This document shows positions 1 to 14,703 of a stretch of DNA of 14,703 bases, piece after piece. The stretch spans positions 1 through 14,703 of the forward strand of contig JAYTHP010000088.1 of assembly GCA_043732485.1 (NCBI GenBank), given 5' to 3'. Position numbers and translations under genes: made by a program. The DNA comes from Oligoflexia bacterium. Its GTDB lineage: Bacteria > Bdellovibrionota > UBA1018. Within the stretch, counting starts at the first letter, position 1. Every line of letters begins with the position of its first letter. Under the pieces are notes generated by a model. That model saw only the letters and a program-made list of their open reading frames with translations, was not told where the DNA came from and ran no database searches.

Positions 1-106
1 AAAAAAATGTGGATAACTATGTGGATAACGTGTGGATAACGTGTGGATAACTTTTCGCGTAAAAAGTTATCCACATAGTTATCCACATAGTTATCCACAT
101 TTTTTT
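1..106. repeat. Nested inverted repeat built from DnaA boxes
   Basis: 1-29 (AAAAAAATGTGGATAACTATGTGGATAAC) is the exact reverse complement of 78-106. 42-55 (TGTGGATAACTTTT) is the exact reverse complement of 62-75, around a 6-nt loop CGCGTA. Confidence 0.95.
8..99. promoter_or_regulatory. Cluster of 7 perfect DnaA boxes (TTATCCACA); candidate oriC or DnaA-box titration cluster
   Basis: TGTGGATAA at 8-16, 20-28, 31-39 and 42-50; TTATCCACA at 67-75, 79-87 and 91-99. AT-rich DNA follows (100-260), and dnaA ends 3.5 kb away. Confidence 0.9.
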
Positions 107-118
107 GAAAAAAACCAA

Positions 119-1317
119 TTTAGTCAAATGATTTTTCGCACTTTTGACCGACTAAACTATTTCGCTCAGATTTACTTCCGATCTTTTTAGTCACCCATTT
201 ACGAAAAACAGCCAAAAACAAGCATTTATAAAAAAAACAATTCACTCAACTATTTTTGACGCAAGACTGAAAAAGTCAGGATTAAAATCCGACCCAAAAG
301 GACGTTGAGGCCCTAAAAACGCCCTAACAGAAGACTAAAATAATCAACTATAGGGGCACTCAGCGGGGAGGCAAACGGCAAGAAAGGGGAAACGCACTCG
401 GGGACAGTGGTGCTTATTTTGGAGAAGAAGGGAGGAGCATCCCAGCTCCAGGGTTGCCGTTGTGGACCTAGGGGGCGGGAGATGGCTTCCAGAGGGCAGA
501 GGAGTTCACGCGCCTGGCCGCCGCGAGCTTCTGGGGCGAGATAAAGACGACATGGGGGGAGGATCGCTGTGGGGGGAGTAGCCTCCGAAGCAGCAGCGAA
601 AAAAAGGGACGTGACAAGTAAGCGCAATTGGCTGGGTGTGGGTGATGAGAAGACAGTTTTTGTCGGCTTTAATCTTGAGTATTTTAGTCAAAATTATAAT
701 TGAGTATTTTGATTTTTTTATGAAATCCCCTTTGATCTTCGAGGGATGGTTCTAGAATCTTTTTAGTCGGGTAAGGACTCATACAAGCCTGAAAGATTCA
801 GGTATCTAGCGCTTTACCTGACTAAAATGCATTGAAAGGGAGCTCGAGAGCGCACGCGGTTGCTTGTGAGTCACGGCGATCCCTGGCGACGGCAGCAGCG
901 GAGGGTGGTGTCGGTGGTTGGGATTTTGTCTTACGAACCCATTTTGGGCATTGTGCTGAGCGCGGACGCATGTTGGGTGATGCCTGCGTGCCCGTCTTTG
1001 GCGGTCACGCAGGCATCACGGCGGGTCTATTGGGGCAGGGTTGGTCTCCATGGCATCCAGGAAACGGTAAGGCGCCCTGCAGTCTGCGCAGGGCGGGCTG
1101 GCATGAGGGCCGTGACGCGCAGAAAACTGTTTGAGTCAGACTTAAGCTTGACCTTTTTGCTCAATCTTAAAGTGGAGTGTTCTTGTTTTTATCAAAAAAA
1201 TCCTTAAAAATTAACTAAAAAATGAGAGGACACTTAAAAAACACTTGAGTCGGATAAGGGCGATAAGCCGCCTCAAAGAGTCAGGTTTGGGGGCTTATCA
1301 CTGACTAAAGTACTCAA
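119..1317. repeat. Dispersed short repeat family TTKAGTC / GACTMAA, including 15-16 bp composite copies
   Basis: Exact TTTAGTC or GACTAAA at 119, 150, 186, 333, 683, 762, 820 and 1303; TTGAGTC at 1131 and 1245. TTGAGTATTTTAGTCA at 675-690(+) matches 1302-1317(-) at 15/16 and 333-347(-) at 14/15. ATCTTTTTAGTC is identical at 181-192 and 757-768. Confidence 0.8.
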
Positions 1318-1324
1318 CCAAAGC

Positions 1325-1348
1325 GATGCGATGCTGGATGCGATGCTG
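1325..1348 (+). repeat. Short tandem duplication GATGCGATGCTG x2
   Basis: GATGCGATGCTG at 1325-1336 and 1337-1348, with a further GATGCT at 1352-1357. Confidence 0.7.
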
Positions 1349-1576
1349 AGTGATGCTTGCGCAAGGCCAGTGCGCCAGTTACCCAAAGCCCGACGCTTGA
1401 GGTCAACATTTCCGAGCCGGGCTCGCCGGGGGGAGAGGTGTCAGTGATCCCACCCAAGTGAGCTGCGGCCCTCTCCGTTGCTGGTGCCCTCGTTCTTAGG
1501 CAAGCTTTTCCCCTTTTTTTCCCGGTAACTCAGCTCCGCTGCCGTGGGGCGGTCGCATCAAGGGTGGTTATTTTTG

Positions 1577-1609
1577 AAACCAAGCGGTTTGTTCCGCCTT
1601 CGGTTTTTT
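1577..1609 (+). terminator. Possible intrinsic terminator-like hairpin
   Basis: AAACCAAGCGG-tttgtt-CCGCCTTCGGTTT is an imperfect stem with two bulges running into a T6 tract. No upstream gene identified. Confidence 0.3.
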
Positions 1610-2007
1610 AAAAAAGATCCACAATTTTTCCGTGATCAACGACTCAGGGTTAATTTTGCGGAGCACAACAAAACGGATTTATCTATTAAGGATCGGGTGT
1701 GGGTTGGGTAGCGCTTTTTTGATCCTATTTTGCTTGAGGCTCATCGTTTTAACGAGCAAAGAAGTAAGAGGTAGTAACTGGTAAAACGAGTGTAGTGGAT
1801 GGAGTGCAGTGAAAGGCGGAGTAGCGATCAAGATTGCTTTTTTTTTCCAGTTTTTGGGCGATGGTGGCTGCTGACAAGCTTGCCTGAGGACGAGTCACAA
1901 GGCGAGAGAAAAAAGCTCTCGCTCTGCTTGGCTACCCTTCGTAGCTTTGCTTTGAGGAAGCCCTTAATTCTTCTGTCTTTCTATTGATTTTATGCTACAA
2001 AGCTCGG

Positions 2008-3291
2008 ATGACATTTAATTTAATGAAAAAATTAGAACTCCCCTCAGGTTTTGTCCGCGTTTGGCTGCAAGGGGTGGCATTACTCTGCGGGCTGAGTTTA
2101 TCTGTTCCTGGACCACTGAGTCTTGAGTCTCAGGCGTTGGCAGCGGACCATGTGCCAGACTTGCTGCAAGCGGGAGATGAGACGGGGGGAGGGGGTGCGG
2201 ACGCTCACGAGCCAGAAGGAGCGCGGCCAAGGCGTTTTGTGCGCGAAAATAGAGGGAAGAGACCAGGACGAGAAAAAGAGGAAGGGTTGCTGTCAGAAGA
2301 GACGTTCGCGGCGCTAAACAGCGGAAAACAGGATCGCTTGGGGGAGAAAAAGCCGGCTTTTGCGCGGGGAGTGCAAAGTGAGCCTCGCGATGTGTTTTCG
2401 CAACTGCCAGTTGAGCTAATTGAGGCGCAGCTTTATCCGAGGCTCAGTGTGCCGGAAGTGATTAATTTTGCTATAAAAAGCAAGCGCTGTTGGGATCGAT
2501 TGCCTGCCTATTTTCGTCTGCAGTCGGCCCGGGAGTGGATTCTATTGACCGATTTGAAAATAGAAGACTCTCAATGGGTCAGTTATTTTCAACACGCAGG
2601 GCCCCTTCATGACATCGAATCTTTGCGGTTAAGTTGTTGTAGGGTGAACTTAGGTTTACTGCCGCTGCTTCCTAAAACCCTCAAGAGTTTGGTGGTTTCT
2701 GACTTGAGGCATACCGATGGGACTCAGCTGAATCCGCGAGACGTGGAAGCTTTGGGCCAAGCGTTGTTTAAATTGCCTCATCTGCAGGTGCTGGTTTTGC
2801 GAAACAGCGTACCTTCGCAGAAGTCCCTGCAAGCGCTCAAGCTGGGGCGTCTTGCTCAGGTGCGAACCCTAGCTTTGCAGGGCTTTCGTCTGGGAGGGGT
2901 AGGCCACAAGTCTGTGGGCTTGGCGTCCTTAAAGCAGCTCGTCATTTTACGGTTGGTAAACTGTGATTTGGGATGTGATGGAGGTGCGGGCTTGCGGGCC
3001 TTCAGCTCGGCTTCCTTTCCTTGCTTGAAGAAACTTTGGCTCGACGGTAATCGCTTAGGGCCTGTAGGCGCAAGCGAGCTTCATTTGGAGAAACTAACGT
3101 GCTTGAGTGAGTTGAGTCTTGGTAGCAATCCCTTGGGAGCGGAAGGCATTCGCGCTTTAAGATTGGAGCAATTGCCCAGTCTCCAGGCTCTATTCGTTGA
3201 TTCCTGTCAACTCACTCAAGAAAACTTAGCGGAGCTGCGGGCCGCGTTACCCGCTTGCAAAATAATTACTCAGCCTCGAAAGGGGCGTTAG
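2008..3291 (+). CDS. Putatively secreted F-box-like / leucine-rich-repeat protein
   Basis: Long ORF; start is more likely ATG 2008 or 2023 than TTG 1984. Signal-peptide-like N-terminus ending ...SQALA/AD. F-box-like segment DVFSQLPVELIEAQLYPRLSVPEVINFAIKSKRCW (~2389-2502). About 8 LRRs, e.g. LKKLWLDGNRLG, LSELSLGSNPLG, LVILRLVNCDLG, LQALFVDSCQLT. Confidence 0.85.
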   Translation: MTFNLMKKLELPSGFVRVWLQGVALLCGLSLSVPGPLSLESQALAADHVPDLLQAGDETGGGGADAHEPEGARPRRFVRENRGKRPGREKEEGLLSEETFAALNSGKQDRLGEKKPAFARGVQSEPRDVFSQLPVELIEAQLYPRLSVPEVINFAIKSKRCWDRLPAYFRLQSAREWILLTDLKIEDSQWVSYFQHAGPLHDIESLRLSCCRVNLGLLPLLPKTLKSLVVSDLRHTDGTQLNPRDVEALGQALFKLPHLQVLVLRNSVPSQKSLQALKLGRLAQVRTLALQGFRLGGVGHKSVGLASLKQLVILRLVNCDLGCDGGAGLRAFSSASFPCLKKLWLDGNRLGPVGASELHLEKLTCLSELSLGSNPLGAEGIRALRLEQLPSLQALFVDSCQLTQENLAELRAALPACKIITQPRKGR

Positions 3292-3439
3292 GGTTGGTGG
3301 TGGTTTTTTTGAGGGGAGAGTTTTGGGAACTCGAGCGGAGGCCTGGTCTTTTAGCGAGTTAAGGTAGGAGGAGTCACTGAAAGGCCGGGAGAGCTGAAAT
3401 GGCCGCCTTCTTGTGGCATAAAGGTCCAAGTTTTTTGGC

Positions 3440-3466
3440 AGGCAAAGCCCTGTTTAGCCTTTGCCT
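3440..3466. terminator. Hairpin between the convergent F-box/LRR gene and tRNA-Gly
   Basis: 8-bp stem AGGCAAAG...CTTTGCCT with an 11-nt loop; T-rich sequence follows on the + strand. Confidence 0.35.
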
Positions 3467-3482
3467 TCTACTTGCTTTTTTT

Positions 3483-3559
3483 TGGAGCGGGTGATGGGGC
3501 TCGAACCCACGACCTCGAGCTTGGGAAGCTCGCGCTCTAGCCAACTGAGCTACACCCGC
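3483..3559 (-). tRNA. tRNA-Gly (anticodon CCC), CCA encoded
   Basis: Minus strand reads GCGGGTGTAGCTCAGTTGGCTAGAGCGCGAGCTTCCCAAGCTCGAGGTCGTGGGTTCGAGCCCCATCACCCGCTCCA (77 nt). Anticodon arm CGAGC-TTCCCAA-GCTCG, T-loop GTTCGA, acceptor stem GCGGGTG/CACCCGC. Confidence 0.97.
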
Positions 3560-3585
3560 CCATAAAAAAGCAATTTTATCAGGTT

Positions 3586-5106
3586 TTAAAGCAGATTTTG
3601 AATCGCTTCCACCGCTTCACGGATTTCTTGATCGCTCTCCAAGTTGGACTCAATCTTGGAGCAGGCATGCAAGATGGTGGTGTGATCTTTTCCGCCAAAA
3701 AACTGACCGATTTCTTTGAAGCCGATACTGGTATACTTCCTTATCAAAAACATCGCAATTTGTCTTGGAAAAGCGATGGAGTGCATGCGAGTGGTCGATT
3801 TGAGGTCTTGCACCCTGAGGTGGAAGTGCTTGGCCACCGCCTGCTGAATTGTCTCAATGGTAATGATCGAGCCTTCTTCTGGCACAATCGAGCGCAATTC
3901 GTGTTTTGCCATCTCTAAAGAGATCTCTGCGCCGCTTAACGACGATTGCGCCTGCAGTCTGATCAGCAAGCCCTCAAGCTCCCGCACGTTGGATTTAATG
4001 TGGGTGGCTAAAAACGTGGCCACGTCATCGGGCAAGTAAATGTCGTCCCGCTCGGCTTTGGTCTTTAAAATGGCAATGCGGGTTTCAATCTCAGGCGGAC
4101 TGATGTCAGCAACTAAGCCCCACTCAAAGCGAGTGCGCACCCGCTCGGCCAAGCCTTGGATCTCCTTCGGTGCGCGGTCACTGGTGACAATGATTTGACG
4201 CTTGGAGCTGTGCAGGGCATTAAAGGTATGAAAAAACTCCTCTTCACTGGTATTTTTACCGGCAATAAACTGGATATCGTCGATAAAAATCATGTCATAA
4301 CTGTCGCGGTATTTTGAGCGAAACTGTGGCATGCGGCGATGCTGCAAAGAGTCGATCAGTTCGTTCACGAACTTCTCAGCCGAGAGGTAAGCAACGCGGG
4401 CTTTCTTATGATGGGTCAGCGCATAGTTGCCAATGGCATGCAACAAATGGGTTTTTCCTAAGCCAGGAGGGCTGTAAAGGAATAAAGGGTTATATTGCTT
4501 GGCCGGTTGCTCGGCCACGGCAACGGCCGAGGCATGGGCAAATTGGTTACTGGCTCCGACCACAAAGCTGTCGAAAGTATAGCGCGGATCGAGGAGATTG
4601 TCGGGGCGAGTCTTAGTCGCCGGAGGATGGAGGATGCCCTGCTCGCGTGTGGGAGAAAACGGGGAAGTCGACGCGCTGCGCTTGCCGCGAGTGGAGGAGG
4701 ACAAGGAAGAAGAAGACGGCTCCTCCAGCACGCCTTCGCCGCCGCCGGGGGTCAGCCCTTTGTTTTTTGCGCTGGCCTCAAGATCGACACTTAAGTGCAA
4801 GCTGCACGTATAGCCACTCACCTGCGCGAAGGCTTCTTCAATGGTCTTTTGGAAGTGGTCGCGCACCCACTGCGCAGAAAAGTCGTTGGGCGCTAAAAGG
4901 TGCGCTTTGATTCCCTGATCTATTTGCTCAATTAAGACCAACTCGAGCGGTTGAATCCAAGCATCGATCTGGGTGCTGACGATGGAGTCTTCCAGGGTGC
5001 GGCAGGTGGCTTGCCACAGTTCCGGCCATTGCTCGGTATTAAGGTGAAGGGGCGAGTTCATAAGTGGGGCTCTCTTTAAGGGGGGGGCGATTTTACTAAC
5101 GAACAC
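3586..5106 (-). CDS. dnaA: Chromosomal replication initiator DnaA
   Basis: YTFDSFVVGASNQFA, Walker A PGLGKTHLL, Walker B FIDDIQF, EEFFHTFNAL, RFEWGL, SNVRELEG and domain IV FGGKDHTTILHA. GTG start with GAGGGAG upstream; alternative ATG at 5061. Confidence 0.98.
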   Translation of the reverse strand: MFVSKIAPPLKRAPLMNSPLHLNTEQWPELWQATCRTLEDSIVSTQIDAWIQPLELVLIEQIDQGIKAHLLAPNDFSAQWVRDHFQKTIEEAFAQVSGYTCSLHLSVDLEASAKNKGLTPGGGEGVLEEPSSSSLSSSTRGKRSASTSPFSPTREQGILHPPATKTRPDNLLDPRYTFDSFVVGASNQFAHASAVAVAEQPAKQYNPLFLYSPPGLGKTHLLHAIGNYALTHHKKARVAYLSAEKFVNELIDSLQHRRMPQFRSKYRDSYDMIFIDDIQFIAGKNTSEEEFFHTFNALHSSKRQIIVTSDRAPKEIQGLAERVRTRFEWGLVADISPPEIETRIAILKTKAERDDIYLPDDVATFLATHIKSNVRELEGLLIRLQAQSSLSGAEISLEMAKHELRSIVPEEGSIITIETIQQAVAKHFHLRVQDLKSTTRMHSIAFPRQIAMFLIRKYTSIGFKEIGQFFGGKDHTTILHACSKIESNLESDQEIREAVEAIQNLL

Positions 5107-9824: not shown

Positions 9825-10694
9825 ATGGGGATCTACCAGTATCTAAGTTTTGAGTGGGCGTCTCCGATCTCTCAGCCGCTGACTTCGTCTCCCACTCACG
9901 ATCTGCTATCGCTCGCTAGCGCAAGAGGGAGCGGTGGTGATAGCGCTTTGGGTCAAATCCTGGTGCTCCGAATCTGCCGGCCGCAGGCGCTGAATGCCTT
10001 AAACTTACTCGTGCTTGAAGAGCTTCACCGCGCGCTGCAAGAGCTAGCCTTACTCCAACCTCCTGCAGCCGTGCTGATCTTCACCGGGGAAGGATCCAAG
10101 GCTTTCGTGGCAGGCGCCGATGTCACTGCAATGGCGGGGATGAGTCGCGAGCAAGCCAGTTACTTCTCCCAGCTGGGCCATCAAGTGATGCGCCTCCTGG
10201 AGAGCTATCCCGGGGTGGTGATTGCTGCAGTTCAGGGCTTTGCTTTAGGGGGGGGGTTGGAGCTTGCGCTGGCCTGTGATTGCATTCTTGCTAGCGAATC
10301 AGCAGTTTTTGGGGCACCGGAGGTGGGTTTAGGCATTATCCCAGGCTTTGGGGGCACGGTGCGTTTGAGTCGCTGGGTGGGAGTGGCGCGCGCGAAAGAG
10401 TGGCTCTTTTCAGGTCGCAAGCTCAAAGCCTTGGAGGCTCACGCTTGTGGATTGGTGAATAAGCTGTTTGCCGATCAAAACTTTCTCCCTGCGGTGATCG
10501 AGTGGGCCCGTCCGATCAGTGAAAACTCGTCACACGCGGTGGTGGCTGTCAAAAAATTGATGCACGAGGAGCATGCCGACGGCAAGTTGGACGCTGAGAT
10601 TCAGCAGTTTAGTCAACTCTTTGGTTCGTGGGCGCAAAAGGAAGGGATGAGTGCTTTTCTTGAAAAAAGAAAACCGCACTTTAAAAGCGATTAA
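9825..10694 (+). CDS. Enoyl-CoA hydratase/isomerase (crotonase family)
   Basis: RPQALNALN, KAFVAGAD, GFALGGGLELALACD and PEVGLGIIPGFGGT (both catalytic Glu present), EGMSAFLEKRKP. ATG 9825 has GGGGAG RBS; the track start is GTG 9807. Confidence 0.93.
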   Translation: MGIYQYLSFEWASPISQPLTSSPTHDLLSLASARGSGGDSALGQILVLRICRPQALNALNLLVLEELHRALQELALLQPPAAVLIFTGEGSKAFVAGADVTAMAGMSREQASYFSQLGHQVMRLLESYPGVVIAAVQGFALGGGLELALACDCILASESAVFGAPEVGLGIIPGFGGTVRLSRWVGVARAKEWLFSGRKLKALEAHACGLVNKLFADQNFLPAVIEWARPISENSSHAVVAVKKLMHEEHADGKLDAEIQQFSQLFGSWAQKEGMSAFLEKRKPHFKSD

Positions 10695-12461: not shown

Positions 12462-14703
12462 ATGACTGACCTCCCAGAAAGTTTTTCCGGTAATTGGCAA
12501 CTTTTTTTTGGGAGAAGGAAGGCAGACTCTCGTCGTCCAGGCGGGCCTTTAGTTCGGAGGAGGAGCGTGAGGCAACAACAGATGCCAAGGCTTGCGGGCT
12601 TTACCCTGGTGGAGACCCTAATTGCCTCGCTTTTGACCACCAGCGTTTTTATCGGGTCCTTGCCTTTGATGAAATTGATTGCCGCTAACCACACCCGCAT
12701 GGCCATGCAATCATCGTTGATGGATTTGAAAAACCAGATGGTACAAAATTTTGCAACCACCGCACGGTGCACCCAAGCCTTTAGCGGTGTGCAGTTTAAT
12801 CCGACTCAAGCCTTTCCTGCCGGCCTGAACGCCGGCATTGCCCTGCCAGGCGTAACCCTCACACCTCAGGTCTCTTCCGCAATGCAAAGCCAGCCCTCAG
12901 GCGGAAGCTCTGCTGCCACAGGTGTCTTGCCTTTTTCCAGTGGGGTGGGTATCAAAAGCCTACAATGGATCTTGCCTAACTCCTCACTCGTGCAAGCGCC
13001 GCTGATGACTTCTACGCCGCTTTTGAATACTTACTTAGCCTTACTCAAAGTGGAGGTCTTTGCTTCGGGCACGCCCTCGGTCAATAGCCTCACAGGAACG
13101 GTTCCTCTGATGGTGTCGATTAATCCCAGCGATCCGACTCATCAGATTAGGTCCTGCACGACGCAAACCGATTTGGTGGGTGCTTGTGTCAATCTCAATG
13201 GGATTATCGATAACACCGGTAAGTGCACTTTCCCCTTGCCGGTGGTCACCAGTGGGCCTAGCGGCTATCCCTGTGTTGCAGCTAGTGTCGGCGTTGGGGT
13301 TTTCCAGCCGGGTCAGGGTATTTGGGTGTGTAATGGCTCGAACTGGGAATTCCCTTATGGTCCTTGCACCCGAACATTTACTGACGCTAACCAGCATGAT
13401 TTTCAGGAACTGACCGGAAGGCTGTCCTACCATTTTACTTGGGATCCGGTGCAACCAGGTCTCACCTTGGCGTATTTGCAAGCCGGTGATCAACCCGCCG
13501 TGCACACCTCCCGCGTGTTTAACTCCTGTACCCAAGGGAAAAGCTGGGCCTCCTTTGGCTGGGTCAGCACTTTGCCCACTTCAAAGAAAATGCTAGGCCT
13601 TGGACAAAGCGAGCCGACCTCAGCTTACCCCCTAGCCTCACCTGCCGTGATGAGTCAAAACGTGGGATTATGGCATTTTAATGATGCGCCAGGAAGCATA
13701 ATCGCGCTAGATTCCGCAACCAGTTCCCCTAACAACGGCACGGTTTTTGGTAACGTTAGATTTGGTAGCCCTGGAAAAATCGGGACTGCGGCCCAGATCC
13801 CAGATAGTAATAGTTTTATAAGCTTAGGCAACGGCGGCAACGGGTCGGATCTTGACAAGGCGATGGAAGATGAGTTCACGATTGCCTTCTGGTATAATGG
13901 TACGACAATACCTCACACTGAAAGTACGATCTTCGTGCGTGGGGCAAATACCGCACTGTCGCCTAGGATTTACCAGGTGCAAAACTCCTCTGTCCCTGGG
14001 ATGATTTACATGGAGCTCTGGGATCTAAGTGTGACTCAGGATCACCCTAGTACTGCGTATCAGCAGAATCAATCCTACTTTTATCCTTCCACCAACAACT
14101 GGGGGCATATCGCGGTGGTCTTTAATCGCAAAGCCATGAGCGTTATTATGTACTCTAGTGGCGTTGAGTTTCAAAATGGCAATAGCGTCAATCCTGCTCA
14201 AATGCCGTCTTCGATACCTAAGTACCTCAAGAAGCAAGATAGTCGTGGGACCCCTTACGTGATAGGCAATACCCTGGTGAGTGGGGGACCGATTATTTTT
14301 CCTTGCTTTACGGATAGTGGTAACTCAGTCCTCGGATTAACTAATAGTTGTAACCCCGTGGGTGGGTCAACCAACGTTACCACAGAAAATACACCAGATA
14401 AGGGTAATATGAACGGCTATATTCAAGAGTTCGCGGTCTGGAACCGCAGCCTATCGCCAGGAGAAATCTTGCAGCTCTATTTGCGGGCGGCCAATCAGAT
14501 TAGGTTTCAGATCAGGGCCTGGGATTTAACGGACTATCCCCATTGCATCGCAGGCACTGAAGGATCGTGTCCGCCCTTTCGTGGGCCTGATGGCACACCG
14601 AACACCTATTTTAGCGAGATCTATAGCACTACGACCAGTAGCCCAACGTTCGGGTTGAATCCCGTCACTTATCCGGGAAATTCAACGCCGGTAGGGAGCG
14701 CAA
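12462..14703 (+). CDS. Large prepilin-type N-terminal cleavage/methylation protein with LamG (concanavalin A-like) domain; 3'-truncated by window edge
   Basis: Manual translation is open from ATG 12462 (or GTG 12567 after GGAGG) to the window end, >700 codons. RLAG/FTLVETLIASLL prepilin motif (F+1 at 12600, E+5). LamG signatures VGLWHFND, FTIAFWY, WGHIAVVF and NGYIQEFAVWNRSLSPGEILQLY (~13662-14480). Absent from the ORF track because there is no stop. Confidence 0.9.
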   Translation, partial: MTDLPESFSGNWQLFFGRRKADSRRPGGPLVRRRSVRQQQMPRLAGFTLVETLIASLLTTSVFIGSLPLMKLIAANHTRMAMQSSLMDLKNQMVQNFATTARCTQAFSGVQFNPTQAFPAGLNAGIALPGVTLTPQVSSAMQSQPSGGSSAATGVLPFSSGVGIKSLQWILPNSSLVQAPLMTSTPLLNTYLALLKVEVFASGTPSVNSLTGTVPLMVSINPSDPTHQIRSCTTQTDLVGACVNLNGIIDNTGKCTFPLPVVTSGPSGYPCVAASVGVGVFQPGQGIWVCNGSNWEFPYGPCTRTFTDANQHDFQELTGRLSYHFTWDPVQPGLTLAYLQAGDQPAVHTSRVFNSCTQGKSWASFGWVSTLPTSKKMLGLGQSEPTSAYPLASPAVMSQNVGLWHFNDAPGSIIALDSATSSPNNGTVFGNVRFGSPGKIGTAAQIPDSNSFISLGNGGNGSDLDKAMEDEFTIAFWYNGTTIPHTESTIFVRGANTALSPRIYQVQNSSVPGMIYMELWDLSVTQDHPSTAYQQNQSYFYPSTNNWGHIAVVFNRKAMSVIMYSSGVEFQNGNSVNPAQMPSSIPKYLKKQDSRGTPYVIGNTLVSGGPIIFPCFTDSGNSVLGLTNSCNPVGGSTNVTTENTPDKGNMNGYIQEFAVWNRSLSPGEILQLYLRAANQIRFQIRAWDLTDYPHCIAGTEGSCPPFRGPDGTPNTYFSEIYSTTTSSPTFGLNPVTYPGNSTPVGSA

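Follow-up and report, generated by a model that had tools for sequence, protein, structure and literature searches.

What reads the heptamer TTTAGTC, which recurs beside the DnaA boxes of an Oligoflexia bacterium? We addressed this question in a window of 14,703 nucleotides, the whole of contig C88 of an assembly of 2.58 Mb that is 89 percent complete. In order, the window carries DnaA boxes at 8-99, 1.9 kb in which no gene is recognisable, an LRR ORF, tRNA-Gly, dnaA, rpmH, rnpA, yidD, yidC and mnmE (Table 1). The original prediction had seen in the heptamer an unrecognised, origin-proximal motif that could mark sites for a second origin-binding protein. The eight copies it reported are real, at 119(+), 150(-), 186(+), 333(-), 683(+), 762(+), 820(-) and 1303(-), and the rest of the window holds only one more, at 10608; this total of nine compares with a mean of 1.41 and a maximum of 7 in 200 shuffles. 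Genome-wide there are 328 copies in 2.58 Mb, which gives an expectation of 0.15 for the stretch against the eight found (Poisson p 5.6e-12). The stretch 119-1309 is the top-ranked 7-mer cluster among 3936 genome windows of 1.2 kb, and every other 1.2 kb of the genome holds at most 3 copies. The 15-16-mers at 333-347, 675-690 and 1302-1317, and the 12-mer at 181 and 757, are likewise present. The variant TTGAGTC, which had been counted with the cluster, is common everywhere, with 2 copies in the stretch, 7 in the remaining window and 493 in the genome.

Table 1. Features of the window around the predicted origin edge, with start positions of 25-bp sites given under Details.
Feature	Coordinates	Strand	Details
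DnaA boxes, seven perfect	8..99	minus and plus	8, 20, 31, 42 minus; 67, 79, 91 plus; predicted dnaA-side end of oriC
Predicted operator site	107..131		5.4 bits; 7 bp from last DnaA box; holds TTTAGTC 119
Cluster A, predicted sites	144..351		144 or 149, 174, 205, 229, 259, 327; 25 bp each
G+C-rich spacer A-B	352..645		no protein or RNA family found
Cluster B, predicted sites	646..838		abutting 646, 671, 696 (25-bp period); then 750, 781, 814
G+C-rich spacer B-C	839..1118		18-bp stem at 977-1019; no protein or RNA family found
Cluster C, predicted sites	1119..1410		abutting 1119, 1144; then 1264, 1297, 1386
LRR ORF	1984..3291	+	points away from origin; weak LRR_4 match, LRR look-alikes
tRNA-Gly(CCC)	3483..3559	-	directly after dnaA
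Further predicted operator site	3562..3586		13.1 bits; between dnaA stop and tRNA-Gly
dnaA	3586..5106	-	upstream of dnaA: rpmH, rnpA, yidD, yidC, mnmE

What had been described as two half-sites at an 8-bp period is an inverted repeat about a 3-bp centre, 675-691 reading TTGAGTA-TTT-TAGTCAA. An alignment of all copies in this frame shows that TTTAGTC is the half-site of a 25-bp palindrome, ATAGTTGACTAAATTAGTCAACTAT, and the 15-16-mers alternate in orientation because each belongs to this palindrome. The motif has a known counterpart, since ATAGTTGACTAAATTAGTCAACTAT matches the type-1 operator consensus of E. coli IscR, ATASYYGACTRWWWYAGTCRRSTAT, as given in the accessible text of PMC3899308. 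In 101-1330, 11 places agree with the IscR consensus in no fewer than 17 of the 25 positions (mean 0.68 and maximum 5 in 1000 dinucleotide shuffles), the window sites matching at 17-21 of 25, and no other 1.2 kb of the genome exceeds 6. Two motifs obtained from the origins of relatives, without being seeded by the IscR consensus, converge on it as well.

The palindrome is not exclusive to the origin. With the IscR consensus, 22 intergenic sites match at 20 or more of 25 positions genome-wide, against a mean of 1.5 and a maximum of 8 for permuted consensus sequences (60 permutations). We then scored the genome with a matrix refined on 79 intergenic sites outside contig C88 and evaluated against local composition, the consensus of which is again ATAGTTGACTAAATTAGTCAACTAT; a first matrix, uncorrected for local composition, had drifted to plain A+T-rich sequence and was discarded. 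The refined matrix places 15 sites of at least 5 bits in 107-1330 (0-3 in 30 permutations), the next densest 1.2 kb holding 5, and it scores the copies at 150 and 1245 near zero as full palindromes, so these may be half-sites only. Across the genome 85 intergenic positions reach at least 12 bits, matrix training sites included, against a permuted mean of 9, and about 80-90 intergenic sites exist in all. Away from the origin the palindrome is an ordinary upstream element, lying 100-350 bp before many genes. Among the 40 of 47 candidate targets that were scanned, 23 had a Pfam family, and the genes after the strongest sites encode two flagellins, aspS, ileS, a PilB-like ATPase, an NtrY-like kinase, DprA, Hsp20, a cytochrome oxidase subunit and an rrf2-iscS pair, the last preceded at 22 bp by a site of 15 bits (C91:11045). 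Since only a few sites also form a -35 box (4 of the 79 genome sites and 2 of 19 in the window), the palindrome is not merely a promoter element. The type-2 IscR consensus shows a weak intergenic excess in the same genome (20 against a mean of 7.9 and a maximum of 17; 111 against 54.6 and 118). Five strong sites of 13-20 bits form a second, smaller array in non-coding DNA near a contig end (C159, L102:2810-3214), a repeated element with two or three sites about 220 bp apart is found at C195:3543-3969, C198:22459-22705, C179:3-249 and C12:19894, and a 12.6-bit site lies at 4911-4935 of the window, within the 5' part of dnaA.

The boxes of the window appear to be the far end of a single oriC. 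The dnaN and recF genes are on a separate contig, C174, whose end carries ten further perfect DnaA boxes, a trio-like TAG run and an A+T-rich tract. Box order and orientation across the ends of C88 and C174 resemble those of the complete origin of a relative, G001, and for this reason we read the two ends as parts of one origin that continues on C174; the join is inferred from this layout, no overlap having been found between the two contig ends. The DnaA boxes within 1-106 are arranged as an almost perfect inverted repeat, with arms at 1-29 and 78-106, and assemblies break there. Positions 83-3559 are covered with zero differing letters by contigs from two runs of a single study, one of them possibly the source, and a second study holds near-identical pieces of the region with five base differences in its contigs. 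The repeat stretch is therefore not an assembly artefact, because contigs from two studies reproduce it. In many genomes of the family (L031-L066) a rearrangement has split dnaA from oriC-dnaN, and tRNA-Gly and gidA-gidB-parA-parB come after dnaA. The source genome also has tRNA-Gly after dnaA, yet its origin lies 3.5 kb beyond.

A search for the literal TTTAGTC near dnaA in relatives gave no cluster over all 36 loci. This search is misleading, because in many relatives dnaA lies away from oriC and because the 7-mer is too strict. When DNA upstream of dnaN was scored, a site of at least 8 bits was found in -760 to -60 in 34 of 58 relatives (permuted mean 6.7, maximum 19 in 100 permutations); relatives with less than 590 bp upstream of dnaN, or not fetched, are left out of this count, and counts over relatives ignore shared ancestry and hence overstate independence. 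Site density is 1.21 per kb in the oriC of relatives and 0.18 in 85 of their other intergenic stretches, and in 17 of the 58 relatives no site reaches 6 bits. Once ORFs, DnaA boxes and trios had been masked, the palindrome was the best de novo motif at widths 21 and 25 in the oriC of the 58 relatives and tied with other motifs at width 17; in unmasked or partly masked searches the DnaA-trio and the 3' end of dnaA came first.

The sites also keep their distance from the unwinding element. C174 (L101:2926-2944) and 50 of the 58 relatives have, 60-240 bp upstream of dnaN, an element resembling the DnaA-trio (CCCTACTACTAC on the dnaN strand) with an A+T-rich run after it. A like trio run occurs in most origins of families without the Rrf2 protein described below, and not, by this pattern, in family f21. 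In the 50 relatives with a recognisable trio, the other 8 being left out, sites pile up at -196 to -200, -269 to -273 and -480 to -490 from it (about 199, 272 and 484 bp). The slot at -199, a few bases before a DnaA box, holds a site in 24 of 50 genomes, against 0-2 in 18 other slots and 5 in one slot; 11 sites fall at -480 to -490. The source genome's own origin site on C174 is at -198. Its site at 107-131 is the positional match to the relatives' origin-edge site, with a gap of 7 bp here and 8 bp in the relative G009. The first TTTAGTC copies are thus part of the conserved origin, which the remaining copies extend. Judged by the conserved -484 slot, the piece missing between the end of C174 and the start of the window would be just a few bases long. 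Further, a matrix built from the origin slot of 39 relatives alone yields the same consensus and ranks 144-1343 first in the source genome, with 15 sites against 10 in the next stretch (permuted mean 2.2, maximum 9 in 200 permutations). That matrix was taken at the symmetric offset 14, chosen after the script-chosen offset, which gave 17 matches against a permuted mean of 13, had run into the flank of a DnaA box. Sites for a second origin-binding protein are thus supported by the de novo search and by the fixed distances.

A purely transcriptional role for the same protein and sites has to be weighed against this. The origin sites would control a dnaN-recF-gyrB promoter within oriC, the array would serve the divergent LRR gene or undetected small RNAs, and initiation would be touched only indirectly. 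Such a role would agree with the palindrome being an ordinary upstream element before many genes elsewhere, with the position of oriC directly upstream of dnaN and of array and origin between the divergent dnaN and LRR genes, and with the rarity of overlap between sites and DnaA boxes: in raw counts, taken without a null, 39 of 83 origin sites lie within 10 bp of a DnaA box and 6 of 83 overlap one. Against it, the sites are fixed relative to the trio and a DnaA box, while the distance from trio to dnaN varies, and they occur both in genomes where dnaA lies next to the origin (inner site in 13 of 31, edge site in 12 of 31) and in those where it does not (16 of 25 and 12 of 25). Of 84 origin sites only 6 also form a -35 box, and the nearest array site is more than 570 bp from the LRR start. 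We regard transcription alone as an unlikely account, though one with some substance.

Which protein could bind these sites? The source genome has two Rrf2 genes, one on contig C74 (4131-4649, encoding 173 aa) before a nifS-like gene and mnmA, which we take as the candidate, and the other before iscS. The mnmA start in the source genome (L071:3175-3519) keeps SGGVDS and the cysteines. The candidate's best solved relative is E. coli IscR (E 4e-28), with a fold match, and its predicted structure (pLDDT 77) has IscR among the top Foldseek matches. It scores 98.5 bits against 30 for PF02082 and 109.1 against 73.3 for TIGR00738, and stays below the cut-offs of the IscR equivalog (TIGR02010, 134.2 against 207.55) and of the CymR model (73.7 against 195). 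The residues of E. coli IscR that contact DNA are S40, Y41, E43, Q44 and R59 (accessible text of PMC11475020, their role as described in a citing paper). The candidate keeps the recognition helix and wing of IscR with His in place of Ser40, and in 80 of 80 homologues Cys is absent and His40, Tyr41, Glu43, Gln44 and Arg59 are invariant; four of the five contact residues are thus those of IscR, position 40 being His, or Phe in the distant genome G272. None of the cluster ligands Cys92, Cys98, Cys104 and His107 is present in the candidate, and because the ligand cysteines are missing a Cys-ligated Fe-S cluster cannot be its input. The protein is found in 70 of 74 family genomes. The palindrome lies upstream of the candidate's own gene in 32 of 76 (permuted mean 5.0, maximum 11), 4 of 80 with short upstream DNA having been left out; in the source genome the best site there reaches only 7.4 bits. 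Taken together, these features suggest that the conserved, cysteine-free, IscR-like Rrf2 protein is the likely binder of the palindrome.

Across 220 genomes of the phylum, the candidate is present in 52 of 53 class members, in 51 of 51 genomes of family f21 and in the one genome of family f34, and was found in none of 115 genomes of other families. Together, the 32 origins taken from families without it hold 1 site, against a permuted mean of 2.2 (G115, with 52 bp of upstream DNA, and G242, with 139 bp, were left out). The genome-wide ratio of strict pattern to control is 5.5 in the family, 2.3 in the rest of the class, 1.27 in f21 and 0.90 in protein-negative genomes. In f21 a site precedes the candidate's own gene in 13 of 26 genomes (permuted mean 2.8, maximum 11), while 28 origins hold 1 site (permuted 3.7) and a de novo search of these origins gave no clear palindrome. 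The 15 further class members have 4 origin sites, no significant excess (10 of 100 permutations were as high). G272, a distant Bdellovibrionota genome (0.9 Mb, 96 percent complete) whose only Rrf2 match is the candidate, carries 4 sites of at least 8 bits among the DnaA boxes upstream of dnaN, and five of at least 6 bits among or beside the boxes; its genome-wide count of the strict pattern is 0, against 3 for the control. Its DnaA boxes are variants, TGTGGAGAA and TGTGGAAAA (L341, L371).

These data also bear on whether the palindrome, as a real origin element, is read by some other protein, either the second Rrf2 before iscS or an unrelated regulator or nucleoid protein. According to the accessible text of PMC3899308, Glu43 prevents IscR without a cluster from binding type-1 sites in E. 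coli and Pseudomonas, and a Glu43 protein without cluster ligands should therefore disfavour such sites. The candidate keeps Glu43, so its His40 or its rebuilt ligand loop would have to lift the type-1 block. Family f21 breaks the link between protein and origin sites, and one site lies directly before the second rrf2 gene. On the other side, the second Rrf2 has a recognition helix that differs from the candidate's; it was not found in G272, whose origin has sites, and has a relative in G183, whose origin has none. The palindrome is moreover the operator of the candidate's closest solved relative and stands before the candidate's own gene in two groups. We consider a different binder improbable.

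The array itself is peculiar to the source genome. Its clusters sit in A+T-rich patches (107-351, 646-838 and 1119-1410), and its strongest site, 327-351, scores 21.5 bits and matches the IscR consensus at 21 of 25 positions. Several sites abut at 25 bp, and spacings of 30-33 bp are also present. Clusters A to C could not be recognised as a triplication. No family reached threshold in an Rfam search of the array, which includes the stem at 977-1019 with its 7-base loop, and its three small ORFs have no Pfam match and low dicodon scores (a weak test, rpmH being also low). Conservation near the origin, which holds for the origin-proximal edge site, fails for the 1.3-kb array: its DNA (100-2000) gave no similarity match in plasmids or 74 family genomes, and no relative among the 58 has more than 2 sites at a like distance. 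Because so long an array has no counterpart in relatives, its function may be nil. None of the inspected loci of relatives showed the LRR ORF at this position. The look-alikes of its product are F-box/LRR and GALA-type clusters, a kind of protein often found in host-associated bacteria. At the other end of the window (12462-14703), the contig stops within a long ORF that has a prepilin-like motif at its N-terminus and a laminin-G-like domain.

The original prediction had suggested an iteron-like or centromere-like array, which, if it served a dedicated protein for initiation or segregation, would account for dense, partly abutting sites next to the origin. We think this very improbable: the sites are degenerate palindromes at spacings of 24-338 bp and not direct repeats, they precede unrelated genes throughout the genome, relatives lack the array, and the window has no rep gene. 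A centromere role is unlikely because a near-canonical parS adjoins parA-parB on another contig, C212, where the lone palindrome of the parS type (C212:42393, between gidB and parA) is the only match to the 16-bp TGTTTCACGTGAAACA within 2 mismatches, none falling in the array. Chance, A+T-rich bias, a methyltransferase target or the recombination sites of an element inserted at tRNA-Gly could be invoked, given that the clusters lie in A+T-rich patches, that tRNA genes are common insertion sites and that the LRR gene was presumably acquired, and are largely refuted by positional conservation and hardly credible, since scores corrected for local composition exceed every shuffle and permutation, a degenerate 25-bp palindrome that keeps to fixed slots in the origin is no methylase target, and no second copy of the region was found among the genome matches listed, nor any in plasmids or family genomes.

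We therefore return to the candidate. On the evidence of motifs, positions and homology, it seems on balance probable that the palindromes at fixed oriC positions are bound by the cysteine-free Rrf2 protein, a predicted global regulator that would also gate initiation. One dimer would cover each 25-bp site. At the inner slot, a dimer 4-8 bp from a DnaA box would most likely restrain the assembly of the orisome until the protein changes in level or state; by analogy with other origin regulators we lean modestly towards inhibition of initiation at this slot, and hold an IHF-like architectural helper to be a serious, if somewhat less favoured, possibility. The input, not being a Cys-ligated Fe-S cluster, may be protein level or a partner. 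In the source genome, a rearrangement left the 1.9 kb of non-coding DNA beside the origin edge, and there the edge sites continue as three clusters with abutting sites, which probably serve as a cooperative loading zone or a sink for the Rrf2 protein. More tentatively, an Fe-S sensor may have become, class-wide, a cluster-free master regulator of the cell cycle and a licensing or blocking factor for DnaA at oriC, a counterpart of CtrA. It would have kept the IscR operator, lost the metal switch and taken over flagellar, pilus and housekeeping promoters, and the 15-site array would be an origin-side reservoir tuning the regulator. We find this possible but doubtful.

If the candidate does act at oriC, it would be the first origin-binding protein of the Rrf2 family, which would join the known origin-binding regulators. 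It would also challenge the rule that a cluster-free IscR with Glu43 cannot read type-1 sites. The analysis bears on how predatory Bdellovibrionota confine replication to one phase of the life cycle: for a sister class it puts forward one protein, a 25-bp site and the exact positions of that site in the origin. Lineages that carry origin sites are represented by metagenome assemblies, and the system is probably absent from the model species. Full-text literature searches returned neither an Rrf2/IscR protein acting at oriC nor an account of the cysteine-free Rrf2 clade, either of which subscription papers or supplements could hold. Within the searchable literature, then, the motif and the kind of system are known and their pairing is new.

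The closest comparison is with IscR of E. coli and Pseudomonas, which shares the 25-bp palindrome, abutting pairs of sites, sites before the regulator's gene and an iscS gene, a nearly identical winged-helix domain that keeps Tyr41, Glu43, Gln44 and Arg59, and the predicted fold. In the Pseudomonas iscR promoter two sites lie within -18 to -67 (accessible text of PMC3899308), and they appear to abut like those of the array. Unlike IscR, the candidate would have no canonical [2Fe-2S] sensing, as it lacks the four ligands, and has His for Ser40; its gene stands before a nifS-like gene and mnmA and does not head an isc operon; its putative targets (flagellins, aspS, ileS, the PilB-like ATPase, the NtrY-like kinase, DprA) are broad and not iron-centred; and its predicted sites are built into oriC. 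CymR of B. subtilis offers a second parallel, its gene presumably being ordered with iscS and mnmA. Like CymR, which is a cluster-free Rrf2 regulator (accessible text of PMC9338935), the candidate is a cluster-free member of the superfamily whose gene lies in a regulator-desulfurase-mnmA cluster; unlike CymR, its helix and motif are those of IscR. The B. bacteriovorus origin, from the same phylum, also lies upstream of dnaN with DnaA boxes as well as a DUE; it measures 232 bp against about 500-600 bp here (accessible text of PMC5124646 and PMC11318664). No initiation regulator is known in that species, according to the accessible part of a 2023 review (PMC11318664). Sampled genomes with short origins of B. 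bacteriovorus size had neither the candidate nor the site, and we infer from this that B. bacteriovorus itself is probably without the Rrf2-origin system. The kind of system finds its precedent in CtrA, Spo0A, AdpA, MtrA and HP1021, which are lineage-specific global transcription factors with sites in oriC beside DnaA boxes, and of which CtrA, Spo0A, AdpA and HP1021 restrain initiation at the origin (accessible text of PMC4285127). The candidate differs from these in family (Rrf2), in motif and in having no receiver domain, and where the sites of CtrA, Spo0A and AdpA overlap DnaA boxes, its own predicted sites abut them.
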